IMG/VR virus record: IMGVR_UViG_3300013947_000004
DNA from: a virus
Length of the DNA stretch: 64,000 nt
Direction: 5' to 3' (one strand)
Shown here: piece after piece, positions 7,489 through 64,000 of the stretch
How the letters are laid out: every line of letters begins with the position of its first letter
How positions within the stretch are numbered: the stretch's first letter is position 1
Made by a program: the position numbers and the translations under genes
The notes under the pieces: generated by a model
Told to the model about the DNA's origin: nothing
Database searches by the model: none
Seen by the model: the letters and a program-made list of their open reading frames with translations, nothing else

Positions 7489-7504
7489 GAAATAGGAGAG
7501 TCTC

Positions 7505-7791: not shown

Positions 7792-7813
7792 AGCCGGGGA
7801 TTATTCCCCGGCT
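7792..7813. terminator. bidirectional terminator hairpin between convergent operons
   Basis: AGCCGGGGA-TTAT-TCCCCGGCT, flanked by an A-run on the left and TCTTTATTT on the right. Confidence 0.65.
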
Positions 7814-8259
7814 TCTTTATTTGTTTCCTCTTTTTCAAATCGGGATAATGCATCACGACTGAACCGAGATTCGATAGACACATATTTTGCCGTCTGTGTT
7901 TGATTTTTGTTAATCGGATTTAATCCAGCCCTATCAAGCATATCTTTTGTAGCTTGGAATCGGACTGATTCTGATTCGGCGTTTCTTGCCAAGTCTAGCA
8001 TGTTCTCTTTCATTTCCTGTGCTTCGTTCAAGAAGCTTTTCATCATTGCTTTCTGTCTATCTTCTATCGCCGTCTGGATTACTTTAAACTCCCCAACTTT
8101 ACTCGACGGGGCGTATCCTGCCACTTCCAGAGCTTTGGATTTAGAGCCGTGTTTCATATATTCTGTAACAAATTTATTCTGTTGCTCGGTAAGATTGCGT
8201 TTCTTCTTTTTTCTTCCGGGCTTTTTAAAAAAATCATGCTGTACACCTTTATTACCCAA
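7801..8259 (-). CDS. terminase small subunit-like HTH protein (Terminase_2-like)
   Basis: LTEQQNKFVTEYMKHGSKSKALEVAGYAPSS matches the remembered TerS P27-type N-terminal HTH. TTG start with SD AGGAGGTGA. Confidence 0.4.
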   Translation of the reverse strand: MGNKGVQHDFFKKPGRKKKKRNLTEQQNKFVTEYMKHGSKSKALEVAGYAPSSKVGEFKVIQTAIEDRQKAMMKSFLNEAQEMKENMLDLARNAESESVRFQATKDMLDRAGLNPINKNQTQTAKYVSIESRFSRDALSRFEKEETNKEAGE

Positions 8260-8280
8260 AGTATCACCTCCTAGGAATTT

Positions 8281-9220: not shown

Positions 9221-9532
9221 CTACTCAACCTCCATTTCTAAATACCTAACTCCAAATTCTATTGCTGAGTTATAATCATTGAAAACAATGTCCACATGGT
9301 TATAGCTTCCATCTCCTATCCTATCTCCTACTACATACCTCTGCCCGTCTATATACACTACGGTTCCTAGAGGAAGGAAGTCACAAGCAACATAACCTTC
9401 TTGTACCCACATCCCGTTTGCCATTACCCCTCCACTCTCGTATGGAGTGTATGCCGTACACATTACGGTCATAGCGTTTGCAGGTAAGACAAAGGAGATT
9501 AGTAGGAGGAGGATTGCCAATAACTTCGGCAT
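9221..9532 (-). CDS. secreted 3D-domain (RlpA/MltA-like double-psi barrel) protein
   Basis: Signal peptide MPKLLAILLLLISFVLPANA, then CTAYTPYESGG...ACDFLPLGTVVYIDG...GDRIGDG...VDIVF, typical of 3D domains. Confidence 0.65.
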   Translation of the reverse strand: MPKLLAILLLLISFVLPANAMTVMCTAYTPYESGGVMANGMWVQEGYVACDFLPLGTVVYIDGQRYVVGDRIGDGSYNHVDIVFNDYNSAIEFGVRYLEMEVE

Positions 9533-9564
9533 CCAACCCCTCCAATCTACTTCTTAAACAAAAT

Positions 9565-25850: not shown

Positions 25851-25871
25851 TAGGTAAAGGAGTTGGAGGAC

Positions 25872-30500: not shown

Positions 30501-31206
30501 TAGTAATGTCCATGCTATTGCTTTTAAACCATTTCACAATATCTTCTTCACTTTGGAGATAATAGTCATCAGATACATAGTACTGAGAATCATCACCTAA
30601 ACCTAGCCACATCTTATGTACTGGAATATCTTCCTTGTTCACATAGTGACTGTCAAGAGTAACAATCGTCTTCCCTAAATTTTCCCATTTTTTATTGTAC
30701 TCTAATTGCTCTGGAAAATTATGGGGCTGAATTTCTACATATAAATCATCACCAAAAATAGATAATAGGCGGGAATACATTTCATCTGCGTTTTCTGCAC
30801 TAAGTGGCCCAGCTACACACGCTGTTGTACATACCAAACCTTCGTGGTACTGTTCCAGAGCTTCAAAACTAATTCTCGGCTTACGGTAGAAATGTTCATG
30901 GGCGTATGTGTCCAACTTCATCATATTTCTGTAGCCTTTAATATCTTTGGCTAAGATTACGAGATGGTACGTGTCACACCCATTTACCGTGATTTCAGAA
31001 GCTAAATAAAATTCACACCCCAAGATAGGTTTTACTCCTTGTTTTTTGCACTCTTGGTAAAAATCTATTATCCCTGTGCATGTCCCATGGTCGGTTATTG
31101 CTAAAGCCGGGTATCCAAGGTCTTTAGCTCTACCAACTAGGTCGGGAATTGTACAAAATGCATCATGGAGGCTATAGTCCGTATGCTGATGTAAGTTAGA
31201 AAACAT
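27559..31206 (-). CDS. dnaE: DNA polymerase III alpha subunit (DnaE-type) interrupted by an intein
   Basis: PHP domain HQHTDYSLHDA...ITDHG, then GLGRGSVVGS and ADIDSD. The conserved YGFNH|SHSAAY motif is split by the intein. Confidence 0.9.
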   Translation of the reverse strand: MFSNLHQHTDYSLHDAFCTIPDLVGRAKDLGYPALAITDHGTCTGIIDFYQECKKQGVKPILGCEFYLASEITVNGCDTYHLVILAKDIKGYRNMMKLDTYAHEHFYRKPRISFEALEQYHEGLVCTTACVAGPLSAENADEMYSRLLSIFGDDLYVEIQPHNFPEQLEYNKKWENLGKTIVTLDSHYVNKEDIPVHKMWLGLGDDSQYYVSDDYYLQSEEDIVKWFKSNSMDITKALENVQEIVDKCNVEIEFGGQHYPVFCDDPATYVKKRCNEGFKRLGISKLPNSNQYIKQVRHEFDVLNKLNYLNYFCIIDDMLKHCRESGIPMGLGRGSVVGSLTAYLMGITQLDPIKYNLVFERFANPERVTPADIDSDVSTPRRQELIEYIKSKYGEVYQARTINYIQDKSAIQRAGEALGIEPKIRIAKSKNIVNVEDMGAKTKEEKEWKELALKFKGHIISYGCHASAVLVCPEDVTNWTAIEKQKDNMVVCHDFHQLEAQGLLKLDILGLETLDIIEKTKHRAGIDSLNIANIPIDDKDTAEMLRRGNTAGCFQIESNVMTGIVLRMGIKNVEDLSSVVALGRPGPLDSGMAETFLRRRNHQEPTIYDIPDLEPILKDTEGVIVYQEQIMQIAQKICGYSLGEADNLRRIIGRKVKDEMQPVIADMIKRGVQRGYTEKQMKDLTDNIVTFASYGFNHCLSGETTLYRNINERKPLTLEEMYKTKTDKKWAKENKHLSLWEKYNRYGYGYGLSIIDGKIKRNKIVDIFYSGKNYVYEVRTESGKYVKCTANHKFPTRKGKKMLKDLKVGELVYIKGDRVKVSHDYRLTNRECISDNIPKKGQKGFQEKMDSNWYLFEEAKKVAIYNQYPCAVCGKSYDGETRFEMHHKNGDRKDNSPENLEWLCTSCHKKEHYKMGRTRQGGNGYELEEDKIVSIKLIGMESVYDIEMEHPYHTVLVNNGIIVSNSHSAAYGMTAWVTAYLKCHYPAAFWASVIDSNCKDKGKLAGYVMEAKKDGIKILPPTLKHKNCFSDYDEDGPTITLGLNCIAGVGKNEFPKDAPTEFKQFIERFISVNKTCLSNLVKAGVFKGNREEMLQFIEWAKDKRKSKGLFKYTQGSYNEQEEESKVLGVSFGNIFQNYNMSLVNNVTIFGYEVLDVKARKTKTGKPMAFVKVRDNDYVKDLVIFNDKYKQFEKHKVYIMKVKNNRIFEFMEAKQA
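28312..29112 (-). mobile_element. intein (267 aa) with HNH endonuclease domain
   Basis: Starts CLSGETT and ends IIVSN before S+1. Internal CAVCG...HHKNGDRKDNSPENLEWLCTSCH is an HNH motif. Confidence 0.85.
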
Positions 31207-33243: not shown

Positions 33244-36200
33244 CTACTCACTAAATGCTTTAGCTGATTTAGCCAAACTCTGAAGTTCTTTATTGTTCTT
33301 CGGGATAGATTTCATCTTCATGTCTATGGAAGTCGTATCTTTTGTTTTTAGAACTTTCACAATTTGGGAATCTGTCATACCATAAATTTTAAGAGCATCG
33401 TAATTTTCCCCATTCGGGTTTTTTATATACTCTTGTTTAGCTTTAGCGACTTCTGCTGTATACTTTTTCTTCATAACCCCTAAAACTTTATTGGCGTCAG
33501 CGGCGTTATTTTCGCTAACAGGTTTAAATCCTAAGAGCTTCATGAATCTGTCCGTTGCCGAATAATGGGAAACTGTATCCCCGTAGCTATTTTTGTAGTC
33601 CCCAGAAATGGCACTTTGGATTTGCCCTGCACGAGGAGCTATCTGTTTGAGGACTCCAGTGAATGCGGCAGGAACACTTTCCGCTCCCATAATAGCTTGA
33701 CCAACACCTTTTGCTGTACTGTACGTCGGGCCTAAACTTGGAGTAAGGGCATCACCCATCCCGATACGAGAGGATAAGTTAACTCCCGCTAATGTGGGAG
33801 CTCCATACAGAGCTACGTTTACGAGTGCTTTCTTAGAAGCACTTCCCCCTGCCCAGTCAATCATAGCTTTTCGCATCATAAGCCCCGGGCTTGTCCCAGT
33901 AACAGAGTCGATGACATCATCAAATAAATCAGCCGCTGGTGCCCCTGTCGCCCCTGTAAGAATCAACATTGGAACGAGGAATTTCACATTCTCTTTCAAT
34001 GTATTATTTCTCATAAAGTTGATTGTAAACAGAGGATATTTCTGGAACTGTAAGAGTAGTTTACCAGTCTGCCCCGCCATAGCAAACGCCTGAGGGGAAT
34101 TAACAGGGCTATAGTCAAAGTTCGTTTCTGTTACAGTTTTCTTCGCATAATCCATTGCGTACTTTTCTTTTACATCTTCCATACTAATCTTTCCGTTAGA
34201 TTTCTTTACAATGGATTTATAGAGAGCATCTTTTTTATCTTTTGGTAACGCATCGAAGTTATCTTTGCCTTTTATATATGCTCCAATAGCCGTGGCTTTA
34301 CGAGCAAAAATATCACCTTTGTTGAAGAAATACATGGACTTTTCTGCAACATCTTCGAGGGAATGCCCACCGAGTACTTTCCGTTTCTTTTCAAATGCTC
34401 CCGGTGTATGTCCAATATCTTCAGCCTCTATTGCAATGCTTCTATCATTAATCCCGACGTGCTTAAATAACTTGTCATACGTATCTTTCTTTCCTTGGAG
34501 CTTAATCCCTTGAAGCAGGTACTTTTCGCCAATTTTAGCGTTGGCATTCAAGAGCTGTGCCGCCTGCACAATCATAGCAGATGGGTTTGCCATACCTAGT
34601 TTTGTGTAGTTCTGTGTACGAATAACTTTTCTTGTAAGGTCAAAATACGGGGTGTCTGTGTGATGGCGTCTAGCAAATCTCCCAATAGCCCCCGTCCTAT
34701 TTTCTATCTTTCCAATAAAGTCTGTCATGACACTGTTAACAAGATTATCAAAAGCAGAGACGGAACGAGGAGCTTCTATCGTCTTAATATATGTTTTCAA
34801 GAATTTCTGTTCGTTTGTAGCAGGAGGGTCGTTTACATCTCTTCCGTACATTTCTTTGTAAGCCGCTGTTGCTTCCGCCTTAAACTTAGCTTTAGCTACA
34901 TAGTTAGCCATTGTGCCAAGGTATCTCCATGTAGAGTCTTCGACATTTTTACTAAACCCATTCATCGTTTCGGGGTTATCTAACCGACCTTGGAAGTAGG
35001 GGTTAAACTTTGCTTTCATATTGGCATTGTTAATTAACATAGATAATTCATCTTTACTAATTGTTTCAGAGGTTCTTCTGCGTAGTTTATCTATAAGCTT
35101 GGTATTTTTCATTTGAGCTTTTACCATCTCTACAACTCGGTTATGAATCGCATTCTTGGTATTTGAGTTCCATTTCTTCATAATCGTATTTGCTCTATCC
35201 ATAACATCTTTGACGGGGATAACATCTTTATCTTTGAAGATTTTAGACAACATAGCTCGCTTTAACTGATTGTTATATTCTCCTTCTGCAACATCATCGC
35301 TGTCTTTTAAATAACCTTCTTCTCTCAATTCTTCTATTTGCTTTGGGGTGAGCCGCTCTGAGCTATTAAGTTTTGTAGATAATGCGACTGTGTCCATGGG
35401 AGTCATTTTGAAAGATTTAGCTTTTATTTCTCCATCCTCTGCCCCCTTATTAATATTCTGAACGTATTCTTCTGCGTCCAAAGCGTTGTAGAAAGAATTT
35501 GTTCTTACCCAGCTACCGTCGGAATCTTTTTCCATAACGACGTAGGGCAAGTGGACGTGTGGGAAATATCCATTACGTTTCTTAGGTAGTTTCGTAGCCG
35601 CACCTGCGTCTATTGCCGCACGGACAGAATCGTTATAAATATCGTCAAAGAATTTTTCATTCTTCGCAAATGCATTAATTACACTCTTGATATTTTCTGG
35701 TTTGTACGAGGAATCCCCGTATCTCCCGTCAATCTGGTTTAACATTCCAGTAACAGCCCGTGCATAATTTCGTTTAGCGAAACTGTTAGCGGACTCTTCG
35801 CTCCTGAATGCGGAACTCCCTTTGGAGAGGGCATATACAGTAAAGCCACGGTTTCTTTCGGAGCCAGCATCTTCCAAAGAATCTCGGAGGGAGCCGACCA
35901 TTTTATATTCCCCAGATTTTTTAAGCTCTGCTACTTTTTTAGCGGCTTCCACACTTGACTTGTAATGTTCTATGTACCCGTTATGGTCTAAGGCTAAGTA
36001 TACATTGCCAATCTTCTGTACCTGCATAGGAGAACGACCCATTTTATCTGCGTGCAGAATAAGTCTATCTAATGCCGCTATCTGGGATTTGTTCAATCCT
36101 TTACGGATGTCAAGGTATTTCTGCGTATATTCTAATGTCTTGTCCCGACTCTTCCTATACGCTTCATCAGCTAATTCATAGATGTGTCTTGCCTTCTTCG

Positions 36201-39200
36201 GTAGGTATTTTTCAAAAATTTCTTGCGGATTTTTTAAGAATCTGCCGATAGTCCCCAACTTGTTATCAGACTTAATTTTACTGCCAATAATGGAATCTAA
36301 AGCTCCACGGATAATGGCACTTTTTGTGGCGTCATTAGCATCTTTCACTCCGTGTTTCCGTACTTGTTTTCCGACGATTTCTTGTTTTTCCTTCTTTAAC
36401 TGAGCTTTACCAACCTGTTGCATTGGGGAGCTTTCTCTTTCATATACTTCTCCAGATTTGATTTTACTAAATACTTCCTGCACCGATGGTGTGCGTTCGG
36501 AAATAATGCCAAGTTTGGATGCCATATCTTTAATCTTATTCCAAATGCTCTTGAATATGCCAGATTTCGGAATTTCAGATTTGCCTAACGCCCAATCACG
36601 GTATGCGTCAGCTTGCACTTCTTCATTAGTCCCAAAAGCTTTTTCGAGAGCTTTTATTTCGGAATCTTTCAACCCCATCATTTTGGCCACATGGAACGCT
36701 TCGTGGAAAGCCGTTCCTTTCCCTGTACCATTAGCCAACTGAACATAGATATTATCCCCCTTGTTTTGAGTGTATCCGAGGACTGTTACATTCTCCGACC
36801 CTTTAATTCCATGTTCTTCTTTTGCTCTTTGTAACTGCTCCCCAGTAAGGAATACCTTGTTAACAATATCAAAGGTTATCTTTCTACCGTTAGGCATTGT
36901 AAATTCTACAGAAGTGTTTGTCACGTTGGTTATTTTGGCGTTGGGGATTATATCTCGGATTTCTTTTTTTGTATTTTCCATGTGAGATTGTGGCACATCC
37001 CCAAGTTGGGATTTGCCAAAAATTCCATCAAGGACTTCTTTTTCTTCTTTGGAGATTTTCTTCCCTCTTTGTCTTATATTCTTTCTTGCTTCTAATGCCT
37101 TTTCATCATCCGCTTTTTTTATTTCTTCTGATTTTTCAGACTCTTTTCTTTGTATGTCGTAAGCAAGTTTTTCTTTCCCTGTCAGGGATTCTCTAAATCC
37201 GTCAGGCTCCTTCCCCCCAGTAGCGAGGGCGTTTTTGATAGTGACGGTTTTCCCATCTTTGCCAATTTCTATAGAAGTCTTCGAGCTGGATGTAATCTTA
37301 TGTTCCTTTTCGAGGTAGTCCAACACATCATCTTTTTCCGCTTTGCTTAAAGGGACGTCTTTCCCGTGCCAATCTTTTACTTTCCCAGAGGGGATGGTTA
37401 CTTTTGCGTCGAAACTGCCTTCCCCGTCTTTGAATTTAGAATTGGAAATAGTAACAGGATTCGATTTCTTCGATTCCAATCCCTCTACTTTAATTCCCAT
37501 GCTTTCTAACTTAGCTAATTCTTCTTTGGAGTATGTCTCCAACTGTCTCTTTTGTAAGGCAATCTTCCCAGATTTTTTAGCCTTTTTAATTTCGTTTTCT
37601 GCGTCATAGTATTCTTTTACACTGTTAGGGATAACGTCAGGATTATTCAGTCCTTTATCATTTACTTTTTGTCCTTTGAATTTATCGTAAAGAGGTTGGA
37701 ACTCTTTCTTAATTTTAGCAACTTCATCCGGATATAAGAGAGAGTCTATAACAGCGTTACGGTTTCTGTTAGTGGGAACTTTGTCTCCATGGATAGCTTC
37801 ATGCACTCTCTGAATAAACCCTTTCACCTTTTTAGTCCCGCTCATAGCCATACGTGCATTTTTTCTATCTTTAACCGATGTCTTGGGGGTAGGTGTAATC
37901 TGTTCACTAACTTTCGGTGTATTCTGAGGTAGTTGTTCTACTTTCTGAGCTTTGGGAGTTTTTTGAACTTTCCCACCATCTTTAACAGTATTGATTGCAT
38001 CAATAACCCGTTTACGGTCTTTAAGAGAAAGTTTCTTTAATTCTGCGCTAACTGAAGCTCTATTTTCAGGAGTGCTAGGGTAACTACTGGAATCCTTTCC
38101 ATTTTCTTTCAGGTCTTTAATCATAGCATTAGCTGATTTTTTAGACTCTTTCATTACCTTAGCTCTTGCATTTTTTAACTGCTGTTTTTGGTTAACGGAA
38201 ATGGGTAAGGAAACAATTTCTTTGTTATTTTCGTCCATGTATTGAGACTGGACACCGTTCTTCTCTAAATCTTCTTTAATGGATGCTACCTTGTTGAATA
38301 CCTGTTTCCGTTGCATTTTTTTGCTTTGTTTTGTAGCTCTATTTGTTTCAGCCGTGATAACGTTCTGAATTTTTTCATGAGAAGCATCTACCCCAAGTTC
38401 GGATAATTTCTGTTGTGCCGTTTCGGATAATTTACCGTCTGGGGCGTAGTAAATAGAATTAGTGCCATTTTCCCGCAAATCTTTTTTGATTTCGTTTTTA
38501 ACGTCCTTTACTTTAGCTTCTTGGTTAGTTCTTGCTTCTCTAGCCCTTTTTTCTTTTTCTCTTACTTGTTCCCCATATTGGTTAATAAGAGCTACATCAG
38601 GGGACGGAGATGTTGCATTGGAAACGTATATTTCGGGGGGAGTATTCCCCAAAGCTTTATCACGAGCAATTAAATCGTTTGCACTGGCTCGGTTAGCTTC
38701 GTCTACTGCCCGTTTATTGATAATATCAATAACTCCTTTTGCATCTGCTGGAGTTTGGATTTCTGGGAAGTCTGGGGATTTAATTAAACCTTCAATAGCC
38801 TGTTTACGTTCTTGTCCTTTTAATTCGTGTGGGGATTCAGACACTGGGTTTACAGAAAGGCTACGGAAATTTCCGTCAGCATCGGTTGTACCTGCTAACT
38901 GCAAAGCCATATTAGCCAAAGTTTGATTCTTTTCGAACGTGGGGTCAACATTTCCATTTTCGTCTGTAAAGAGAGTTCTTTCGTAAGTGTCACGAGGAGA
39001 TACTGTGCTTAATGTATTTGTTAATTCGTTTACCCTTGCGTCAGTAGGCAAATCAGCTTCACTTGTAATTTCATCATTTACAGTTATTGGACTATTTGTG
39101 ACAAGGTTGTTGTAGAGAGTAGTCGCATCTTCGTTGCTTAAACCCGCTAAAGAATCCCCTTCTGCATTTTCTCGGAGTTCTTCTCTTGCTATATTTATTT

Positions 39201-40365
39201 CTGGGTTTTGGATTTCCCCGATACTGCTTTGTTCTTTGCTATCCTCAATAGATTCGCTAATACGCCCACGTCGATGACCAACCGAACCAAGAAATGCAAG
39301 AGGCCCGAACCCAATAGCGGCTTGTGCCATTTGGTCTTTAGAAGAATCCTGCATATCGAATGGATTGTATTCTATCGGCGTATCGTTGATAGAATAGTTT
39401 TCCAACTCATTCTGCAATCCTTCCGTGTAAGATTCGGCGGCAATACCCGGAATACCACGGGTAGCAAACCGTTTAAGTAATCCCGTATCTGACCAGTCGG
39501 CAACCTTTTCACCTGCATTAGCAATGGCATTTACAAGTCCCGAACCTTCTTTTTCTGCAATCCGTTCACCAGAAGACAATAATCTGCCGGGGGCTTTCAT
39601 AACCCCTTTAACCATACCCATTTCGATACCGTTTTGGATTGTACCTAAGAGCATGTTTACGCCGAAGTCGGTCATTGCGCTATCCATTGCAGAATCTCTA
39701 TCCATCCCTTGAGAGATAGCATCTTGGTATGTCTGTCCAGTTTCCCTAGTAGCATCAATAAAGCCGCCGATGGCGTTCTTGGCGGCAAATTCTCCAACAA
39801 CCTTACCGCCATCAGCTAAAGCTCCAAGAAGTTTACTTCCACCCGATACAGCTCTGCCTACTTCGCTAGCTTTTTCTGCGAGAGAAGCCGCACGCCCTGC
39901 CATGCCTACTGCACGGACGGCACCTCTAGCACTAAGACTTGCAACAGAACTCATCCCGCCAGTAATAGCTAATGCGGCTAAATCAGGAGCTACATTACCA
40001 ACAGTCATACCTATTGTGCTTGTTAAACCTTGCGGGTCGGTAACATATTCCCAAGGATTGCTCTTTATATCTTCCCAAGAATATTCTTTTGTGGGTGCTC
40101 TGCCATATTCTAAACTCCGCCCAAGGTTAGAGAGTCCCTCCCCGATACCAATATCGGGAGTGCCTAATTTATCGCCAAGGACATCTAAGCCAGCACCAAA
40201 AGTGTCTAAAGTTCCGCCGAGTCCGTATATTGCTGAATTTAAATAACTGTCAAGGAATCCCCCATCCCCGTAATGGGGGGTAGGGGCTAAGTCTGGATTA
40301 AGGGCGTCATTTCCGAACGCTGAACTTACAGCATAACTATATGGGTATGCACCTAAAAGTGCCAA
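33244..40365 (-). CDS. giant virion or ejected protein (2373 aa), tape-measure/internal-core-like, with HExxH zincin motif
   Basis: TTG start. Gly/Ala-rich hydrophobic N-terminus, a K/E-rich region with three ~55-aa KDLxENG repeats, FHEAFHV at nt 36691-36705, and hydrophobic segments near the C-terminus. Confidence 0.6.
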   Translation of the reverse strand: MALLGAYPYSYAVSSAFGNDALNPDLAPTPHYGDGGFLDSYLNSAIYGLGGTLDTFGAGLDVLGDKLGTPDIGIGEGLSNLGRSLEYGRAPTKEYSWEDIKSNPWEYVTDPQGLTSTIGMTVGNVAPDLAALAITGGMSSVASLSARGAVRAVGMAGRAASLAEKASEVGRAVSGGSKLLGALADGGKVVGEFAAKNAIGGFIDATRETGQTYQDAISQGMDRDSAMDSAMTDFGVNMLLGTIQNGIEMGMVKGVMKAPGRLLSSGERIAEKEGSGLVNAIANAGEKVADWSDTGLLKRFATRGIPGIAAESYTEGLQNELENYSINDTPIEYNPFDMQDSSKDQMAQAAIGFGPLAFLGSVGHRRGRISESIEDSKEQSSIGEIQNPEINIAREELRENAEGDSLAGLSNEDATTLYNNLVTNSPITVNDEITSEADLPTDARVNELTNTLSTVSPRDTYERTLFTDENGNVDPTFEKNQTLANMALQLAGTTDADGNFRSLSVNPVSESPHELKGQERKQAIEGLIKSPDFPEIQTPADAKGVIDIINKRAVDEANRASANDLIARDKALGNTPPEIYVSNATSPSPDVALINQYGEQVREKEKRAREARTNQEAKVKDVKNEIKKDLRENGTNSIYYAPDGKLSETAQQKLSELGVDASHEKIQNVITAETNRATKQSKKMQRKQVFNKVASIKEDLEKNGVQSQYMDENNKEIVSLPISVNQKQQLKNARAKVMKESKKSANAMIKDLKENGKDSSSYPSTPENRASVSAELKKLSLKDRKRVIDAINTVKDGGKVQKTPKAQKVEQLPQNTPKVSEQITPTPKTSVKDRKNARMAMSGTKKVKGFIQRVHEAIHGDKVPTNRNRNAVIDSLLYPDEVAKIKKEFQPLYDKFKGQKVNDKGLNNPDVIPNSVKEYYDAENEIKKAKKSGKIALQKRQLETYSKEELAKLESMGIKVEGLESKKSNPVTISNSKFKDGEGSFDAKVTIPSGKVKDWHGKDVPLSKAEKDDVLDYLEKEHKITSSSKTSIEIGKDGKTVTIKNALATGGKEPDGFRESLTGKEKLAYDIQRKESEKSEEIKKADDEKALEARKNIRQRGKKISKEEKEVLDGIFGKSQLGDVPQSHMENTKKEIRDIIPNAKITNVTNTSVEFTMPNGRKITFDIVNKVFLTGEQLQRAKEEHGIKGSENVTVLGYTQNKGDNIYVQLANGTGKGTAFHEAFHVAKMMGLKDSEIKALEKAFGTNEEVQADAYRDWALGKSEIPKSGIFKSIWNKIKDMASKLGIISERTPSVQEVFSKIKSGEVYERESSPMQQVGKAQLKKEKQEIVGKQVRKHGVKDANDATKSAIIRGALDSIIGSKIKSDNKLGTIGRFLKNPQEIFEKYLPKKARHIYELADEAYRKSRDKTLEYTQKYLDIRKGLNKSQIAALDRLILHADKMGRSPMQVQKIGNVYLALDHNGYIEHYKSSVEAAKKVAELKKSGEYKMVGSLRDSLEDAGSERNRGFTVYALSKGSSAFRSEESANSFAKRNYARAVTGMLNQIDGRYGDSSYKPENIKSVINAFAKNEKFFDDIYNDSVRAAIDAGAATKLPKKRNGYFPHVHLPYVVMEKDSDGSWVRTNSFYNALDAEEYVQNINKGAEDGEIKAKSFKMTPMDTVALSTKLNSSERLTPKQIEELREEGYLKDSDDVAEGEYNNQLKRAMLSKIFKDKDVIPVKDVMDRANTIMKKWNSNTKNAIHNRVVEMVKAQMKNTKLIDKLRRRTSETISKDELSMLINNANMKAKFNPYFQGRLDNPETMNGFSKNVEDSTWRYLGTMANYVAKAKFKAEATAAYKEMYGRDVNDPPATNEQKFLKTYIKTIEAPRSVSAFDNLVNSVMTDFIGKIENRTGAIGRFARRHHTDTPYFDLTRKVIRTQNYTKLGMANPSAMIVQAAQLLNANAKIGEKYLLQGIKLQGKKDTYDKLFKHVGINDRSIAIEAEDIGHTPGAFEKKRKVLGGHSLEDVAEKSMYFFNKGDIFARKATAIGAYIKGKDNFDALPKDKKDALYKSIVKKSNGKISMEDVKEKYAMDYAKKTVTETNFDYSPVNSPQAFAMAGQTGKLLLQFQKYPLFTINFMRNNTLKENVKFLVPMLILTGATGAPAADLFDDVIDSVTGTSPGLMMRKAMIDWAGGSASKKALVNVALYGAPTLAGVNLSSRIGMGDALTPSLGPTYSTAKGVGQAIMGAESVPAAFTGVLKQIAPRAGQIQSAISGDYKNSYGDTVSHYSATDRFMKLLGFKPVSENNAADANKVLGVMKKKYTAEVAKAKQEYIKNPNGENYDALKIYGMTDSQIVKVLKTKDTTSIDMKMKSIPKNNKELQSLAKSAKAFSE

Positions 40366-55219: not shown

Positions 55220-57191
55220 CTATTTAGAAATGCCTTTGATACGTGCAGAAGCAATCGGGGCTGTACATTCCAATGTAACAGAACCAGTAATTACTTTCTG
55301 ACGATAAGTACCAGTACGAGGCGGATTTTCCGTGTGGAACGGAATAAGGTAGCCTAATTTCCAATACTGGAACTCAATCAAATCGACAACATCGTCAGTA
55401 TACATACGATGTGCGTTTACGTCAACTCTGCCAAAATCGGTTTCTATCCATTACCTTTGGCTATACCCCATATTACTATGGGAACTGACTATCCCTTAAC
55501 CTAGGCAACATTCGGAGCTTTTAACATTTCCTCTAAGGGCATAGCTCTTTTATGTTTTCTTACGGACGCTATTTCCACAATCAACTCTTTGGGGTACTTA
55601 TTCCTAACAATTCTCCCCTTACTATCTCTTGTAAATAAGTTTTCTTCTCTTTCTTTTATAAAGTTGAGAACAACTTCTGCATTATGCTGTTTTACAGAAT
55701 TGAGATAAGGGTAAACCATAGGAATAACACCTTTTACTCTCGCAAATCTATCTATTCTGATATTACATCTTTTTAGATGCTCTGGGTGGTTTTTATCTAT
55801 TACCCAACTTGCTTTATATCCAACCCCAATATCATCAAGGACTTGCATTACTTTGTTTATTACTCCTTCGTCTGTATTTGTAATACTAACAAAAGGAACA
55901 ATTACAAGGTTTCCTGTCTTACGAGTTGTTACTTGGAAGGATATGCTCCCTTCCCCATCCATAATTCCACCTAACCAAGCCAAATCTATCGGGTCTGGTT
56001 TGTGGAAGTCTAGGTTGTCTGCATTATAATATTTATAATCTATTGATACGTTTTTTGCTTTCAAATATTATACAACTCCTTCGTTATTTAGAAATATCCA
56101 AACATAGAAGTAATGTTAGTCGATAGCGAGCTGTTGGCTCACGCCACATACCCGACGGGATTACCCTTAGCATTACCTGTAGGGCTTCCCCGTTTGAGCA
56201 GACTTAATTTATCCGTCTATCACTAGGCGGCGACGCAATAGAACCAGTTTACGTCAATGACTTCGACAAGGTCTTTACTTTCCATCGGACGAGTTTTCTG
56301 TACACCCTGCGTCCATCCGGAGATTTTACGTTTGTTCTTCCCGGAGCAAACAACGGTATCAATACTGCCACCACGTTTCCAAACTGTCTGCATTGCATCA
56401 TTCAGAAGGTCAAATGTGAGTTCACCTTTTGTAGATGCTGTTGCGGCATCAATCAAGTTCTGGTTAGTCAAAACCATTTTAGAAGCGGCAACTGCGGCAG
56501 ACGGTTTAATAGCAGTTTCAGAAGTATTAGACATCATAGTCTCCTGCGGTGTGCTATGTACGGTAAAAGAGTTTGCGTCAATTACATGAACATAATATGT
56601 GGTATTTGCTTTATAATTGGAATCCAATACACCACCAGATGCCGCCGCAAAGATAACAGGGTCACCGTCAAATAATTCATGACCAGTTACGGTTACTTTA
56701 CCATCTGTGTCAATGCTAACTACTGGTTTTGTAGCTTCCAAGAAGTACGCAATACCGCCAAAACGTGCAGGCTGTGTATCTTCAGCCTTAGCTACTTTGT
56801 TGTTTACGATAGCGTATTCCAAGTCACGGGCAGTTTCTTTGCCGCACTTAACAAACTGGTAGGACAGTTCATCTCGTACACCATATTTCTTAACTGCCTG
56901 TGTGGTATCGGTCGTACTATAACCGTTGAGGAACTGTTGACAGTAGTTAGCAGAGCGTGTACGGGGACGTGCTTTCTGTACATCGAAATCAACAGCTTCA
57001 AGTGTAGCGTTGTCACGTGCAGGACGAAGGTTATCGTTCAACCATTCGTGTTTAGTGGATGTTACGGAAGTATTTCCGAATCGTTTAGAGTAGAACGTTT
57101 CGTCCGGGTCAAGAGCAGTGATGAAGTCACTAACATCTTCGATTTTCCCTACAATAGTCCCGGATTTCACGGTTTTATCAATAATTGCCAA
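55220..57191 (-). CDS. major capsid protein (HK97-fold type), interrupted by an intron (exons 57191-56251 and 55448-55220)
   Basis: Sits after the scaffold gene. Exon 2 (IETDFGRVDVNAHRMYTDD...ASARIKGISK) has no start or SD and reads like an MCP C-terminus. The joined product is 389 aa. Confidence 0.7.
55449..56250 (-). mobile_element. group I intron carrying a LAGLIDADG homing endonuclease gene
   Basis: The 5' exon ends UGACGU. Intron GCGUCG (56236-56231) can form P1 with U.G at the splice site. The intron ends ...GGUAAUG. Boundaries are inferred and may be off by a few nt. Confidence 0.6.
55501..56064 (-). CDS. LAGLIDADG homing endonuclease (intron-encoded)
   Basis: LAWLGGIMDGEGSISF motif; TTG start after AAGGAG. 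Confidence 0.75.
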   Translation of the reverse strand: MKAKNVSIDYKYYNADNLDFHKPDPIDLAWLGGIMDGEGSISFQVTTRKTGNLVIVPFVSITNTDEGVINKVMQVLDDIGVGYKASWVIDKNHPEHLKRCNIRIDRFARVKGVIPMVYPYLNSVKQHNAEVVLNFIKEREENLFTRDSKGRIVRNKYPKELIVEIASVRKHKRAMPLEEMLKAPNVA

Positions 57192-58333: not shown

Positions 58334-59254
58334 TTAGTCCCCCCATAACCAAGCAAAGAGTTTTGGAGGCGTACCATCCCCTACAGGACTCGGATATGTT
58401 CCTGTACGGTAGTAATAATCTTTGGAGTACTGGTCATCCAAAGCCGCTGATTCTTCTGGGGTAGCCTCCCGAATAGTTGGGGTGTCGTCACTATAATCAG
58501 AAGAATAACTGTCTCCCGATGAGTAATCGCCGTAATCACTATAGCCAGAATCGTAATATCCACTATCCCCGTCGGAGTAATCACCACCGGAATAATAGCT
58601 ATTGTCATAACCACCGCCGGAGCTAGCCTGCTGTGCCGCAAGTGCCGCCTGTCGACGGGCTTCTGCTTCCATACGTGCTTTTTCTGCCAAATATGCAGTC
58701 CAATCACGGGATGCTTGGTTCGGTTGGATAGCCCCAGCATTAACTAAAGCATTATATGCCTGGTAATTAAACCGCCGTTTCATATACTGGTTAATCATGT
58801 CATCCGACCAGTCTGGATGTAACTGTTTCAGTTTATCCACATTCCATTCCTGTGCCTGTACAACGTCAGAGGGGTTCATCAAAGTGGAACCATCCCCTAA
58901 ATTAGCTGTCTGAGCTTGGAAGGCAGGGGAGTCCATTTTAGTATTGTTGGGAACATACTGCGGCAAACTTGGCTGTAAACTATTCAATTTATCAAGCAAT
59001 TCTTGCCGACGTACGTTAAATCCATTAAATCCAGCCGCTTTATCCATCGCCTGTGCTTGGGCTAATTTCTGATTAACGGCGGCACCTACTGGACTATTCA
59101 AAATATTCTGTTTCTGTCCCTGCCCCGTAGCTATCTGCTGTGGAGTAGTAGACATCGGTGGAGCATTAACAGCCGCTAGATACTGTGAGTAATTAGCTTG
59201 TGGCTGATTAATCTGTTGGTCTTCTTTGTAAGAAATTCTGTTCTGTTTTGCCAT
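58334..59254 (-). CDS. Q/N-rich protein with Y/S/D/G low-complexity acidic tail (306 aa)
   Basis: ORF track; head module. Confidence 0.55.
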   Translation of the reverse strand: MAKQNRISYKEDQQINQPQANYSQYLAAVNAPPMSTTPQQIATGQGQKQNILNSPVGAAVNQKLAQAQAMDKAAGFNGFNVRRQELLDKLNSLQPSLPQYVPNNTKMDSPAFQAQTANLGDGSTLMNPSDVVQAQEWNVDKLKQLHPDWSDDMINQYMKRRFNYQAYNALVNAGAIQPNQASRDWTAYLAEKARMEAEARRQAALAAQQASSGGGYDNSYYSGGDYSDGDSGYYDSGYSDYGDYSSGDSYSSDYSDDTPTIREATPEESAALDDQYSKDYYYRTGTYPSPVGDGTPPKLFAWLWGD

Positions 59255-59273
59255 TAAATTTTATGATTCCCCC

Positions 59274-59570
59274 TTATAAAGTATAACTATTAGCTGGTTC
59301 TTTATTATCGGAAAGAGCTTCAAATTCATTTTTTGCAATTTCAGCATTTGTTACTTTGGCTTCAAGCCAGCTTTTAAAATCCTCCAATGCCACCAGCTTG
59401 TTGCGAAGGCCCATTACCTCGCGGTCTTGGCACGTTTTGAGGTGTTCGATTGTCAGTTCTTGATAATCCTCCAACCATTTGGCTGTTAGGGTCTTGACTA
59501 GCTCCGCTTTGTCCCCCAATTCCATTGCCGAGCATAGAGCCTGTCTGTACTCCAATTCCGTTTTGTCCAT
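59274..59570 (-). CDS. coiled-coil protein (98 aa)
   Basis: ATG 59570 follows GGGGAGGAGG. Lies out of frame inside the 3' end of the portal ORF. Confidence 0.55.
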   Translation of the reverse strand: MDKTELEYRQALCSAMELGDKAELVKTLTAKWLEDYQELTIEHLKTCQDREVMGLRNKLVALEDFKSWLEAKVTNAEIAKNEFEALSDNKEPANSYTL

Positions 59571-61530
59571 TATTTGAACCTCCTCCCCACATAGTTCTTG
59601 TTGCTGTAGAGCTATTGAACAGAGCTTGTAACTCAGGCGGCAACTGCATCATAATTTCTGGAGGGAGAACCCCAGTTTGCATGTATAACTGTGCCGCTTG
59701 CGGCGGTAACGAAGCCAAAACCTGCATTTTTAGTTGTTCTTCCATAACCATCCTCTGCTGAACAAGAGCAGGGTCTGTAATATAATCCGCATAATTCTTA
59801 AAGCCAGCGGCTTCAATCCATTTCTTAAAGAGATTGTATACATTGTCAGGCGTTACAATTGGGATACCTGCCGCCCGCACTTGCATCAAAGCTGTAAGCA
59901 TGGACTGTAGCATCATCTGAGTGGACTCTTTGGAGGCGATACTGATTCCAGCATTGACAACCAAATCGAAATTCCCCTGTAAATCATCTGGGCTGATGGC
60001 TAATTCTTGGTTGGTCAAGCGGATAACCGTTTCTTGGTCTATGAATTTTTGGTTTAACCCAATCATAAAACGGAACAGTTCATACACGCCAGTTTCAGCA
60101 AACATTCTCGCAATCAACTCAAGTCTTTGGGTAGACGCACCCATTATCTGAGAAATACCTGTAGCCGTTTTATTGAGCGTGTTCGCATCTAGACCTTGGT
60201 TATACCGAGTAATACCGGTCCGGTTTTCTTTTTGTGCTTCTATGTATTCAAGGAATTGATATGTATATGGGCTTAACTGGTTTACAGGCATTGACATAGC
60301 AACGTCCTGCATAGCGTGGTTGGCTTTTTTCCGAATAACAGCTCTGCCTTTGACATAATCGTCGATATTGATAGCATCTTCTGCCAAAATCATCTTTGGG
60401 TCATTGGTAAGGGCGATATTCTGTACAATCTGCCGAGTTAATGCAACTTTTAAATCCTGTAATTCCCCAATTAACTCTGCATAAGAGCGTTTTACCCAAA
60501 TTCTATGCGGGTCTTTTGTAGGGCTGATAGAGAAAAACGGATGTCTGCCCATATAATTGGGTTCCACCCGTAAAATAGTGTCATCAACAATGGTTACTAT
60601 CATATCTTCAAGCACACCATCGTTATCCCAGTCTATTTTTGTATAACATTCGTATAAGGTAACTTCCGCCCGCGCATCATCGGCTTCTTGACTCATTCCT
60701 TGGTAGTTATCACCAATAACCTGTTCGACGATATCATCATCTAAGATGCCAGTCATCGGCTTTGGCGTGATTTGGTCTACGTTTGCGTAAATGCCTTGCT
60801 GTTCCTTCTCCCGCAAATATGACATTGTCACCTTTTTCTTATGGGCTACAAAGTTTGCTTCATCAAGAGTCTTCGCATCGGAAGAATAAAGCAATTCCGA
60901 TACTAGAATATTCTCAATAACGGGAGCGTTCTTCACGTAATATGGGCTTAAATACTGTACCCTCATAATACCAAACTCATCAGGACCTTCGACGCTCTGG
61001 ATTTTAACATTCTGTTGCTGTAATTCTTGGAAAGCTCTCATGTTCATAGACTGTTCCAAGAGCTGGCAATCTTCTTTTCTGTCCCAGTAGCATTTAATAA
61101 TGCCCATCCCAGTTATCAGGGCATCTTTCATCCAGTTATATAAGATAGGGAAGAAACGATTCTGCCGTTGTAACTGATAAACGAGCAATTCCTGCATGAT
61201 TTCGGCATTTTTATCGTCTTCTTCTGATGCCCCCTGTACGGTAACAACTTCGTCACCGCCAGTAAAGACTTTAATCAGAGAAGGTAACGCCCATTCAATC
61301 GTATCTGTAACGTCTGTAGATACCAAAGACGAAACCTTGGACAGGCGAGGAAATTTGCGGGCGTAGTAATCCTTGTCGGCGTAGTAAATTTCGTAACGTT
61401 CTTTTACTGTTGGAAGGATTACAGAATCTTGGTAATTTTCAGCATCAGAAATATCTCTCTGAATAGCAGTTACTAAGCTTTTGTCAATATCATCTATTGA
61501 CGGATTTTCTTTATTCTGAAGAAAACTCAC
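59374..61530 (-). CDS. portal protein
   Basis: 718-aa ORF between TerL and the scaffold/MCP genes. GTG start after GGGGGGA. Called mainly by size and position. Confidence 0.65.
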   Translation of the reverse strand: MSFLQNKENPSIDDIDKSLVTAIQRDISDAENYQDSVILPTVKERYEIYYADKDYYARKFPRLSKVSSLVSTDVTDTIEWALPSLIKVFTGGDEVVTVQGASEEDDKNAEIMQELLVYQLQRQNRFFPILYNWMKDALITGMGIIKCYWDRKEDCQLLEQSMNMRAFQELQQQNVKIQSVEGPDEFGIMRVQYLSPYYVKNAPVIENILVSELLYSSDAKTLDEANFVAHKKKVTMSYLREKEQQGIYANVDQITPKPMTGILDDDIVEQVIGDNYQGMSQEADDARAEVTLYECYTKIDWDNDGVLEDMIVTIVDDTILRVEPNYMGRHPFFSISPTKDPHRIWVKRSYAELIGELQDLKVALTRQIVQNIALTNDPKMILAEDAINIDDYVKGRAVIRKKANHAMQDVAMSMPVNQLSPYTYQFLEYIEAQKENRTGITRYNQGLDANTLNKTATGISQIMGASTQRLELIARMFAETGVYELFRFMIGLNQKFIDQETVIRLTNQELAISPDDLQGNFDLVVNAGISIASKESTQMMLQSMLTALMQVRAAGIPIVTPDNVYNLFKKWIEAAGFKNYADYITDPALVQQRMVMEEQLKMQVLASLPPQAAQLYMQTGVLPPEIMMQLPPELQALFNSSTATRTMWGGGSNNGQNGIGVQTGSMLGNGIGGQSGASQDPNSQMVGGLSRTDNRTPQNVPRPRGNGPSQQAGGIGGF

Positions 61531-61541
61531 TAAATCCCCCC

Positions 61542-61820
61542 TTACACCTGTCTATTTACAATCGTCGGTGGCTTAAACGCAGAACCAAATATCTCCCCAT
61601 TATCTAAAAGCACCAAAGAGCGTTTCCCCCGACCACGTGTAGCGTCATGGTATTTGCCCTCATCTCTAGCTTTTAAATATAAAGTATGGGTGTATTTACC
61701 AATATATGGAAGGATGGAAGTTACACGGTTTACATTAACCATAAAACCAAAACCTATACCTAAAAAGGGGCCGTTTTCATTATTTAAGCCTATCCTTGTT
61801 TCTAAAGCTCCTTTTGACAT
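61542..61820 (-). CDS. RemA/DUF370-family protein
   Basis: GIGFGFMVNVNRVTSILP...KARDEGKYHDATRGRGKRSLVLLDNGEIFGSAFKPPTIVNR parallels B. subtilis RemA (IGFGN..ANR..SIVSP...ARD.G.LIDAT.GRRTRAV...SA.QPET...R). ATG 61820 follows GAGGAGGAG. Confidence 0.7.
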   Translation of the reverse strand: MSKGALETRIGLNNENGPFLGIGFGFMVNVNRVTSILPYIGKYTHTLYLKARDEGKYHDATRGRGKRSLVLLDNGEIFGSAFKPPTIVNRQV

Positions 61821-62083
61821 AACTCCTCCTCTATTACAAATAAATACCTCCCCGCCACGAGGAGGCCCCCTTTTGCAAATGAAAACAAGGAAAACCTTAT
61901 TTAGCATAGGAAAAGCAGGGTATATTTTAAGAAGTCCCCGTAGAGATACTTCCTTGGCTGTTAAAATTTCAGGCTTATGCAGTCACGTCTGACCAAACCA
62001 ACCTTAAAAAGTATGCCCGTCCGTTTAGGATAGAGCTACTTTCGAGGGTCTACCCTCCCAGCATAATTTAATGGTTTCTTTCT

Positions 62084-62157
62084 TGGCGAGGACTGATAGA
62101 TTCGAACTACCATTAAGGGTTTTGGAGACCCCTGTTCTTCCATTAAACTAAATCCCC
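62084..62157 (-). tRNA. trnW: tRNA-Trp (anticodon CCA), CCA end encoded
   Basis: Folded by hand: 7-bp acceptor, 4-bp D stem with GG loop, anticodon stem GGGGU/ACCCU, loop CUCCAAA, T arm GGTAG-TTCGAAT-CTATC, discriminator G, then CCA. Confidence 0.85.
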
Positions 62158-62292
62158 AAGATATTCTCTTACCAAACTCTCCTGCCGTAGGATACAAAGT
62201 TCAGAGAAAAGCTTTAATCACCTCCTTTCAACTACGGCAAAGTAATATTTGCTTTAGTTGTCAAAAGGTATCACCTCTTTCAAAGTGTTTAT

Positions 62293-64000
62293 TTACATAC
62301 TCCCGGCGAATGGGATATCTTCCCCACCGACTTTTTCATAACTGCTAACGGGAGCAAAGTATACTTGGTCTTGGTATGCCAAAGCATCAATTAAATCATC
62401 GTGTAAAGATTTAGGGAAAGCAAGAAGTTCTCCTTCTAATTCTCCGAGAAAGGAAGCTCCCATGGGGAACCATACCGTACCTGCTTTAAATCTTGGCTGG
62501 ATGGCTTTAATACGTTCTTCCTTCTTTTCTTTTGCTTCCAAATCTTTTACCGTGAACCAGACATTCCTCTTAGGCATTTCCTTTTCTACAAAGTGGGATA
62601 ACGCCGCTTGGTACGCAACCTTTTCCATTCCTACATATACTGGCTTATATCGAACCACGGCATCAAAGATGGCATCAATCGTATCGGAAGGATTCCACCG
62701 TCCGTAGTTGATATCGAGGATAAACCAATGGTTATCGGAATTAACTCCTACCGTACATACAACCGTGTAGTCGGCAGTTTCTTTTTGGGAAATAGCCAAG
62801 TCAACCGTAGTGAATATATTCATATCCTTTGTAGTTACTTCTTCCGGCTTGTAGTATTTAAAATATTCCTTTTTGAATAATTGGCTTTCGGGGGAAATAG
62901 CAATACACATTTTTTCTCTTTCCCACACATCCAAGTTACCGATACGACGAAAGGCTTCCCGTTCAGCTTTGATTTCGTCTGAACTCCATCGTTCGGGCCA
63001 TACGGAATTTCCTTCTGCGTCTAAAATAGGAATGCGGACGCCAATAAACTTCAAATCCTTCTGATTTTCAATAACCCTCTCTATTAAGCATTTCTCACCT
63101 AAGTTATTGCCAATCATAAAAATTCTTGTTTTCTTACCAAGGAAGTTTACATCGGATAAAAACCATTCCCAGTCGGATTCTTGTACTGTATCCGATTTAG
63201 CATCTTCAATATCCTGCGGGTCATCTATTAATACAATAGACGGACGGCAGTCATGTACATTCAAACCACGGATAGAAGCCCCTTTGCCATAGGCTTCAAA
63301 GCGCACCCACATCTCCTCTTGGTTTTCGTCTGTTACCACTACTTCAAACCCAGTCTGGGATTGTTCTACAATCTTAACCAAATTCATAGATAATAGTTCG
63401 TTACTCAGCCATTCATCTTCTATTTCTTTTAATCTCTTGCTAGCCAATCTTTGGTTAGCCATAATAAAGACTACGTACCGTTTGTCTCTAGAAGGGAATG
63501 TAAGGCAATGGAAGGGGAAAGCTCTAAGCACGACCCCGGAATTATGAGTTGGGATACATCCTGTACCGCATAAAAATAATCCCGTAGGACTGTCAACCTT
63601 AATACACATGGTTGGGACAGATTTGCAAGGGGTTACTTTCTTTACGGTTCTCATTTTTGACCGGGCATCTTGTTTCTCTTGGATTAAATAATTCTTCCTC
63701 TTTAACCTTAGGAATTTATTTGTTGTTTTAAAGGAAATGTCAAAATGTGGAAAACATTCTTTCCCATATAAATAGGTTTTGCTTTCCGTCATAGTACATT
63801 TAAGCCCAAGGCTTTTAATTAAATAAAATGTTCCTTCGGCTAATCTTTTATTCGTATTAGTAAAGGTGATAGTCCCTTTCTTCGTCCCCGTCTTAGCAAT
63901 AGTCCCATCACTATCAACAAGTCCCGCCAATAAATCCCATCGGTTTGCCTCGCTATCGTAAAAATATTCCTCTGGGATATGTTTGTCGTGGAATAATTTT
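62293..64000 (-). CDS. terL: terminase large subunit (5' end outside the window), interrupted by an intein
   Basis: The C-extein begins at 63540 (SGVVLRAF...), with IVLIDDPQD and a C-terminal nuclease-like region. The frame stays open to nt 64000. Confidence 0.8.
   Translation of the reverse strand, partial: KLFHDKHIPEEYFYDSEANRWDLLAGLVDSDGTIAKTGTKKGTITFTNTNKRLAEGTFYLIKSLGLKCTMTESKTYLYGKECFPHFDISFKTTNKFLRLKRKNYLIQEKQDARSKMRTVKKVTPCKSVPTMCIKVDSPTGLFLCGTGCIPTHNSGVVLRAFPFHCLTFPSRDKRYVVFIMANQRLASKRLKEIEDEWLSNELLSMNLVKIVEQSQTGFEVVVTDENQEEMWVRFEAYGKGASIRGLNVHDCRPSIVLIDDPQDIEDAKSDTVQESDWEWFLSDVNFLGKKTRIFMIGNNLGEKCLIERVIENQKDLKFIGVRIPILDAEGNSVWPERWSSDEIKAEREAFRRIGNLDVWEREKMCIAISPESQLFKKEYFKYYKPEEVTTKDMNIFTTVDLAISQKETADYTVVCTVGVNSDNHWFILDINYGRWNPSDTIDAIFDAVVRYKPVYVGMEKVAYQAALSHFVEKEMPKRNVWFTVKDLEAKEKKEERIKAIQPRFKAGTVWFPMGASFLGELEGELLAFPKSLHDDLIDALAYQDQVYFAPVSSYEKVGGEDIPFAGSM
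63541..64000 (-). mobile_element. intein C-terminal part with LAGLIDADG domain (partial, continues beyond the window)
   Basis: LLAGLVDSDG motif (the track's M is a TTG Leu). Ends CIPTHN before S+1. Blocks F/G closely resemble the DnaB intein. Confidence 0.8.

Follow-up and report, generated by a model that had tools for sequence, protein, structure and literature searches.

RemA (YlzA), the only characterized member of its protein family, activates transcription by wrapping upstream DNA (PMC8481266). In the protein from Geobacillus thermodenitrificans (GtRemA), an inter-subunit salt bridge between R18 and D59 stabilizes an octameric ring, DNA is bound through R50, R51, and R53, of which R51 is essential for the DNA shift, and a 16-mer required for activation involves the helix α1 residues P29, R32, D36, and D/E39 (PMC8481266). 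RemA is known only as a bacterial biofilm activator whose ring wraps DNA. Here we describe a RemA-like gene of a phage, located at positions 61542..61820 (minus strand) of a 64,000-nucleotide (nt) stretch of viral DNA, IMG/VR record IMGVR_UViG_3300013947_000004, which as a whole we call the window. The gene lies between the genes for the large terminase (terL) and the portal. A previous reading of the letters of this stretch, made without database searches (here the sequence-only reading), had proposed a RemA/DUF370 homologue at this place that either acts in DNA recognition for packaging, in the manner of a small terminase (TerS), or reprograms host matrix genes. We tentatively put forward a different role, that of a late accessory that shapes phage DNA.

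The window encodes a divergent member of the RemA family

The RemA-like gene is 279 nt long, ends in a TAA stop, and encodes a protein of 92 amino acids (aa) with an isoelectric point (pI) of 10.0, in which a variable N-terminal extension of 18 residues is followed by the RemA core. Its sole Pfam match is PF04025 (DUF370), which scored 50.5 bits (E = 2.3e-13; gathering cut-off, 26 bits) over profile positions 1 to 72 of 73. A phmmer search of the PDB aligned residues 19 to 90 without gaps to G. thermodenitrificans RemA (7BM2; E = 1.9e-8, ∼32% identity). We also built an AlphaFold2 model from nine sequences of the phage clade (predicted local distance difference test [pLDDT] 86.8, with a low-confidence N-terminal extension). 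RemA chains were its only significant Foldseek matches in the PDB (7BM2, 7BME, and 7P1W; TM score 0.86 to 0.94 normalized to the target, root-mean-square deviation [rmsd] 0.7 to 1.3 Å). The next match was a LytTR domain at E = 0.6, as is to be expected from the relationship of RemA to that domain (PMC8481266). The assignment to RemA/DUF370, which the sequence-only reading had drawn from four motifs that are all present (IGFG, NRVTSILP, ARDEGKYHDATRGRGKR, and SAFKPPTIVNR), is thus borne out by the profile match over nearly the whole of PF04025, by phmmer, and by the fold. Against NF046064, the NCBIfam equivalog model for RemA, the protein scored 44.4 bits, far under the cut-off of 140 bits, and on these scores we therefore regard it as a member of the family that is not a RemA orthologue.

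The mutational data for RemA (PMC8481266) were mapped onto the window protein through an ungapped alignment with an offset of +14. Both partners of the ring salt bridge are kept, R18 corresponding to R32 (present in eight of nine clade representatives) and D59 to D73 (invariant in the clade). Among the DNA-binding residues, R50 corresponds to the invariant R64 and R53 to R67, which is mostly kept in the clade, while the position of R51 is taken by G65 in the window protein and by Lys in most relatives. Extra positive charge is found at the positions of H48 (R62, invariant) and T52 (K66, mostly Lys in the clade), and these additional basic residues may compensate for the glycine. At the 16-mer interface, P29, the start of helix α1, is not kept and becomes Y43; R32 becomes T46 (Arg in most relatives), and the positions of D36 and E39, here K50 and D53, are variable. 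The proteins that we checked from the phage clade of the window (clade A) have a pI of 9.5 to 10.1 and lack the acidic C-terminal tail seen in a second phage-type lineage (clade B, described below) and in two fecal bacterial copies. The pattern of kept residues suggests that the window protein would form a RemA-type ring and would bind DNA on the outer basic loops of that ring.

Gene arrangement and expression signals

The start codon of the RemA-like gene (ATG at 61820) has AGAGGAGGAGTT just 5' of it, containing the Shine-Dalgarno sequence GGAGGAG (61824..61831, minus strand, read from the sequence), which stands 4 nt 5' of the ATG. The frame can be read from further upstream, as 121 aa from an ATG at 61907 or, in relatives, as a gene call of 105 aa, but the residues so gained lack conservation among homologues. 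The SU10-type portal gene (59374..61530, minus strand; 718 aa, 511.7 bits) is in the same orientation and tightly spaced: its GTG start lies 11 nt past the RemA-like stop, and its ribosome site, GGGGGGA, begins right after that stop. We infer that the RemA-like gene is part of a late operon with the portal gene and is expressed late. Inspection of the upstream sequence revealed no promoter belonging to the gene itself. A G+C-rich hairpin of nine pairs followed by ATTTATTTGT (61846..61866, minus strand; a pattern match only) lies 25 nt 5' of the start. It resembles a terminator, but the space that follows is too short for a promoter, so that late transcripts have to cross it.

Between terL and the RemA-like gene lies a tRNA-Trp(CCA) (62084-62157, minus strand; ARAGORN, with 60.3 bits for the Rfam tRNA model). 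The window holds only the 3' part of terL (62293..64000, minus strand, running beyond the window), where a LAGLIDADG intein ends and the C-terminal nuclease domain (Terminase_6C) is encoded; the complete terL of near-identical relatives encodes 813 aa. On the far side of the portal gene, whose C-terminus (∼59374-59600) is a Gly/Gln-rich tail, a 306-aa protein is encoded (58334-59254, minus strand) with a C-terminal half of low complexity that is rich in Ser, Gly, Tyr, and Asp and is without a family match. Both this low-complexity half and the portal tail are conserved in position among relatives.

Constraint and divergence in the phage clade

All 39 clade-A loci that we compared share the gene order terL, zero to two small open reading frames (ORFs) and/or a tRNA, RemA-like gene, portal, with 11 to 70 nt between the RemA-like stop and the portal start. 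The placement between terL and portal and beside a tRNA that the sequence-only reading had described is therefore not only correct for the window but conserved across the clade, and the RemA-like gene is directly upstream of the portal gene in every clade-A locus whose portal is at least 73% identical to that of the window. Between lineages, the RemA-like protein is 44 to 61% identical to the window protein, falling to 37% in one locus (L101) in which the portal is still 79% identical; the corresponding ranges are 73 to 90% for the portal and 72 to 87% for terL. Within lineages, the ratio of nonsynonymous to synonymous substitution rates (dN/dS) is 0.02 to 0.04 at dS 0.8 to 1.15, and dN is 0 at dS 0.06 to 0.12. 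The gene is real and functional, under strong purifying selection within lineages and fast diversifying. Rapid divergence between lineages combined with tight constraint within them is the pattern that would be expected of a specificity determinant. Divergence of TerS is similar in the one genome comparable for both genes, IMGVR_UViG_3300045988_106038, which carries a TerS copy 66% identical and a RemA-like gene 61% identical to those of the window.

A search of the representative library returned eight clusters (at 50% identity) with E <= 1e-10, seven of them ∼90-aa clade proteins and the eighth P0008, and below these the scores fall to other family members, including bacterial RemA-like proteins. 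The clade is abundant in gut and rumen metagenomes, with single members seen on tens to hundreds of metagenome contigs. P0008 is a 531-aa polypeptide with five detected (probably six) tandem RemA-like domains, and it matches the phage protein (E = 3.8e-13) better than does any single-domain bacterial RemA-like protein. Proteins with two or three RemA-like domains also occur (P0011, P0012, P0018, and P0036).

A variable slot between terL and the portal gene

We surveyed the terL-portal slot in 63 IMG/VR loci recovered by a portal profile. Every locus with a portal at least 73% identical to that of the window has a RemA-like gene in the slot. At 64 to 70% portal identity, 35 loci carry instead a Cpn10/GroES gene of ∼88 to 90 aa (PF00166, 62 to 66 bits), and at 46 to 66% the slot is empty in 12 loci, with a terL-portal gap of 13 to 68 nt, the same arrangement as in cultured relatives. 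RemA-like and GroES genes occur together in none of the 63 loci. The GroES-bearing sister phages (L050-L100; for example, GroES at 4701-4973 in L064 and at 4731-4997 in L050) come in many cases from Human Microbiome Project samples. Spacing around their GroES gene is as tight as around the RemA-like gene, with a GroES ATG that overlaps the terL stop in both loci checked (L064 and L057) and, in L064, a portal ribosome site that follows the GroES stop. The junction also gathers tRNAs, homing-endonuclease-type insertions, and, after terL in some relatives, a 128-aa ORF with no PHROG match and no homologue in the window. GroES was not detected anywhere in the window; one candidate, at 9224-9553, gave a weak hidden Markov model (HMM) match that Pfam did not confirm and was discarded. 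Since the content of the slot varies, a position between terL and portal is no evidence for a role as a terminase. It suggests a late, head-stage accessory function, as for GroES.

A canonical small terminase elsewhere in the genome

The sequence-only reading had remarked that no canonical terS is visible beside terL. This is literally true, but a canonical terS is present in the window at 7801..8259 (minus strand), encoding a Terminase_2-type protein of 152 aa. The gene closes the minus-strand array, converges on the plus-strand block at 1243-7783, and is separated from the start of terL by ∼8.3 kb when counted across the circular junction. In a batch scan of 54 small proteins, the one Terminase_2 match and the one match to a TerS PHROG both fell on this protein (PF03592, 27.6 bits against a cut-off of 26.1; phrog_2538, E = 8.9e-12; phrog_51, E = 4.3e-8). 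Comparison by hhalign with the PaP3-type TerS of LUZ24-like relatives gave E = 3.9e-4 over a region spanning the helix-turn-helix (HTH) and an R..A....L...G motif. A single-sequence AlphaFold model shows an HTH followed by long helices, and its best two Foldseek matches are small terminases, at a nonsignificant E of 3. The protein alone had no phmmer match in the PDB, and tblastn of the PhCF1.2 and Pa222 TerS proteins against the window had none either, so the gene was found by profile methods only.

No terS homologue was found within 3 to 10 kb flanks of terL and portal in any related clade, using a shallow two-sequence HMM that is weak for distant clades. As far as this profile reaches, a distant terS is a trait of the whole group, whether the slot holds a RemA-like gene, a GroES gene, or nothing, and the RemA-like protein is therefore not a compensation for it. 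With a canonical TerS present, the phage needs no substitute, and the RemA-like protein is not the only candidate DNA-recognition subunit of the genome. It matched no family in PHROGs v4, hence no terminase family, and its predicted structure is β-rich, with the RemA fold and without the N-terminal HTH and helical oligomerization core of TerS. Together with the variable slot, these results weaken the TerS-like role that had been proposed for it.

RemA-like genes in other lineages

A second, unrelated phage-type lineage (clade B: P0138, P0154, and P0162, on contigs of 34 to 110 kb) also carries a RemA-like gene, at 8001-8396 in locus L034 and at 7001-7306 in both L035 and L036. These proteins are 30 to 36% identical to the window protein and have acidic C-terminal tails. 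Their genes are part of a replication and nucleotide-metabolism module with a primase-helicase, a PD-(D/E)XK nuclease, DNA polymerase III alpha, ThyX or RNR, NUDIX, RuvC, and an integrase. Those of L035 and L036 overlap the stop of DNA polymerase III alpha, and that of L034 lies ∼1.4 kb downstream of it; the clade-B polymerase is only ∼23% identical to the DNA polymerase III alpha of the window. Judged from these sequences, the RemA family has entered phages at least twice, and into different modules, a finding that fits a general activity in DNA architecture or regulation better than one confined to packaging.

Bacterial copies occupy a yicC-remA-gmk-rpoZ-priA neighborhood (seen in L014, L015, L037, and L038). 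A tblastn search of INPHARED with the RemA-like protein hit two records, MT835883 (L014) and MT835604 (L015). Although labeled "UNVERIFIED Bacteriophage sp.," MT835883.1 and MT835604.1 are really fragments of bacterial chromosomes (glmS or pfkA, yicC, remA, gmk, rpoZ, priA, def, and fmt), and we rejected them as phage. The BFVD library of viral structures gave no match at E <= 1e-3. We found no report of a phage DUF370/RemA protein in the literature searched, in PHROGs v4, or in genuine phage records of INPHARED; the protein adds a new viral branch to a known family, in a previously undescribed context. Annotation pipelines label clade copies "DUF370 domain-containing protein" (RefSeq WP_204903949.1) or "regulator of extracellular matrix RemA" (IMG). 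Those literature matches for RemA together with phage that could be judged by title concern the Flavobacterium/Cellulophaga group, in which RemA is the name of a gliding adhesin. Separately, a single ylzA mutation has been reported in a phage-resistant Paenibacillus isolate.

Genome type, relatives, and likely host

One locus (L001) joins the end of the window to its start, adding 1,263 bp to the 64,000, so the assembly is circular or permuted with a length of 65,263 bp. Structural genes are of SU10 type (portal, major capsid protein, and adaptor). Those for replication and metabolism comprise a DnaG-DnaB fusion with an intein, DNA polymerase III alpha with an intein and HNH endonuclease, a SNF2 helicase, and a split NrdD, and the genome also encodes a dUTPase, an Erf/Rad52-type annealing protein, a thioredoxin, HTH repressor-like proteins, and a tyrosine integrase (25863-26975, plus strand). 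The structural region contains an ORF of 2373 aa (33244-40365, minus strand) without a Pfam match, and it may encode an internal virion protein comparable to the giant ones of N4-type phages.

By portal, the nearest cultured phages (∼30% identity) are Photobacterium phage PhCF1.2 and the LUZ24-like Bruynoghevirus group, followed by N4-like phages and Kuravirus, and a megablast search of INPHARED with 59000-64000 found no close DNA relative among cultured phages. A portal 90% identical to that of the window (WP_204903948.1) is encoded midway on a 152,693-bp contig of Megasphaera elsdenii (GCA_016899685.1), with a 91-aa RemA-like gene directly upstream of it, and other relatives are embedded in bacterial contigs of 137 to 365 kb. 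The integrase and these relatives inside bacterial contigs indicate that this SU10/LUZ24/N4-related podophage group is temperate. It probably infects Megasphaera, a genus of gut and rumen bacteria, or related Negativicutes, with M. elsdenii as one host of the group. Among GTDB species representatives, the RemA-like profile had no match, and the portal profile matched no more than one fragment, 33% identical, in a metagenome-assembled genome of Thiopseudomonas.

Selfish elements and a structured region upstream of terL

The genome is crowded with selfish elements. Besides the LAGLIDADG intein in terL (62293 to beyond 64000), there is one in the DnaG-DnaB protein (19633-22662) and an HNH-containing intein in DNA polymerase III alpha (27559-31206). 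The major capsid gene is split by an insertion with a LAGLIDADG ORF (56223-57191 / 55501-56064 / 55220-55405) and is intact in L002, NrdD is in two pieces (10388-11782 / 9565-10020), and some relatives have portal inteins (P0176 and P0275; ∼1059 aa).

Upstream of terL, a gene-free stretch of ∼1.6 kb with repeats and divergent transcription extends to the first plus-strand genes. The 1-130 repeats of the sequence-only reading consist of a 34-nt unit with a hairpin that occurs three times (47-80, 99-132, and 364-397). Within this stretch, the region 130-670 (plus strand) is G+C rich, with many GNRA-type hairpins and RNA fold z-scores of -4.4 (plus strand) and -2.9 (minus strand). Identical 14-nt direct repeats (ATATACTGTAACCA, at 141-154 and 639-652) flank it, and between the window type and the L010 type, pairing is preserved by double changes at eleven base pairs. 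Rfam returned no family for it at the gathering threshold or at E <= 1. The region is a candidate for a large structured RNA or a mobile insertion.

Proposed role and alternatives

We hypothesize, tentatively, that the viral RemA-like protein is a late-made, ring-forming DNA-architectural accessory of the nucleoid-associated type that acts on phage DNA at the stage of head assembly and packaging, as a cofactor and not as a subunit of the terminase. The small, basic protein would assemble into a RemA-type ring, bind DNA through the outer basic loops, and be made together with the portal and head proteins; its ring might, for example, help the canonical TerS/TerL complex to assemble by bending or wrapping DNA, or might compact the DNA substrate. 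We lean toward this role because the ring and DNA-loop residues are conserved, the protein is basic, and its gene is tightly spaced and cotranscribed with that of the portal; a head-stage accessory in the same slot of the sister clade (GroES) and a divergence like that of a specificity determinant also fit. Any link to packaging is one that we infer. Several observations weigh against the proposal. The arginine that is essential for DNA binding by GtRemA (R51) is Gly65 here, and residues of the 16-mer are not kept (R32 to T46, D36 to K50, and P29 to Y43). The slot is variable and the second lineage has its RemA-like gene in a replication module, so that position alone does not tie the family to packaging. 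Finally, an autocorrelation scan of the reconstructed 65,263-bp genome at lags 9 to 12 and 21 detected no 10/11-bp periodic repeat array of the type that RemA targets, with nothing above z ∼4 to 5 and no peak upstream of terL.

The same data are also fitted by a purely regulatory role, in which the ring would wrap DNA upstream of promoters and control phage genes (for the late phase, lysis, or lysogeny) or genes of the host, with the late-operon location being incidental. We consider this rather unlikely, but it would agree with the activity of the sole characterized family member, an activator that wraps upstream DNA (PMC8481266), with the replication and early-type modules of the clade-B homologues, which would suit a general regulator, and with the repeats and divergent transcription of the gene-free region upstream of terL. 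A regulator encoded downstream of terL would, however, sit inside the operon that needs its activation; moreover, no promoter of its own and no periodic AT-rich array were found, and the 16-mer interface needed for activation by RemA is not conserved. If regulation were directed at the host, the protein could replace host RemA or poison it through mixed rings and so alter matrix or biofilm genes, as the sequence-only reading had suggested in its second proposal. In favor of this, the phage is temperate, RemA orthologues occur among the Firmicutes (PMC8481266), the phylum of its probable host genus Megasphaera, and the ring-interface residues R32 and D73 are kept. Even so, we judge such mimicry or antagonism improbable: placement in a late operon leaves little time for reprogramming before lysis, ∼32% identity to the solved RemA and a score of 44 bits against the 140-bit equivalog cut-off are low, the 37 to 61% identity between lineages reflects a deep divergence unlike that of a recently captured host gene, and the 16-mer residues required for RemA function are not kept. 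Late placement and deep divergence thus count against reprogramming of the host matrix. TerS-like action, the first use that had been proposed, finds little room either. A protein that wraps DNA as a ring and has its gene between those for terL and portal is conceptually near a TerS ring, and its quick divergence between lineages is like that of a specificity subunit, but that it is the packaging subunit that recognizes DNA is very improbable given a canonical Terminase_2 TerS conserved alongside it, sister clades that have the same terL and portal genes with GroES or nothing in the slot, and the lack of any PHROGs match or of TerS architecture.

We give hardly any credence to a function without DNA, taken over from GroES, in which a ring of ∼10-kDa subunits helps to fold or assemble head proteins or binds the portal. 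GroES and RemA-like genes do share a slot in sister clades and never co-occur, the window has no detected GroES homologue, and the RemA-like gene is tightly coupled to that of the portal. Nevertheless, the folds are unrelated, RemA rings are 8-fold whereas GroEL/GroES is 7-fold, and the conserved basic loop points to nucleic-acid binding. An extension of the DNA-architectural proposal, which we regard as unlikely, is that RemA-type rings are an unrecognized class of phage DNA-wrapping proteins recruited independently by at least two lineages, one using them in a replication module and the other in a packaging module. There, the DNA at the packaging start would be wrapped by the ring, which would assist the canonical TerS/TerL terminase as a cofactor specific to the lineage, much as IHF does in lambda but supplied by the phage.

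A deeply diverged, strongly constrained viral branch would show the RemA fold in use outside host gene regulation, and RemA biology would gain in the phage a compact system, ∼65 kb in size, for the identification of targets. If the proposed role is true, a new fold joins the short list of phage-encoded DNA-architectural proteins; if the protein is an ordinary accessory regulator, the main value is that a common group of Megasphaera-type prophages can be better annotated. The survey also documents that the accessory between terL and portal is swappable, the slot being filled by GroES in one clade and by a RemA-like gene in another. The protein is a clean and testable lead for RemA and phage-DNA-architecture biology, without evidence of a new mechanism.

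Comparison with known systems

The closest described system is RemA of Bacillus subtilis and G. thermodenitrificans (7BM2; PMC8481266), to which the window protein is alike in family, fold (rmsd ∼1 Å), and approximate size, with the R18-D59 ring salt bridge, R50, R53, and a C-terminal Arg all kept. It differs in its ∼32% identity, its 18-residue N-terminal extension, the replacement of R51 by Gly with extra basic residues nearby, and the loss of P29 and of the 16-mer interface. The neighborhoods differ as well, yicC-remA-gmk-rpoZ-priA in bacteria versus terL, tRNA, RemA-like gene, and portal here. Clade-B proteins (P0138, P0154, and P0162) share the family and an origin on phage-type contigs, but have acidic tails and belong to a replication module.

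TerS rings (PaP3 TerS, 6W7T; SF6 G1P, 3ZQP) resemble the window protein in concept, as small oligomeric rings proposed to wrap DNA and encoded in a packaging module. The RemA-like fold is unrelated, however, without HTH and coiled coil, and the phage has its own Terminase_2-type TerS. Phage GroES cochaperonins (Cpn10, of the T4 gp31 type) occupy the same slot with a ∼90-aa subunit of a ring-forming family, coupled equally tightly to the portal gene; their fold is not homologous, and their partner is GroEL, whereas that of the RemA-like protein is presumably DNA. In functional class, the role that we propose would place the protein beside phi29 p6 and SPO1 TF1, from which it differs in fold. 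These are small phage proteins, products of early or middle genes, that wrap or bend phage DNA for replication, transcription, or packaging.

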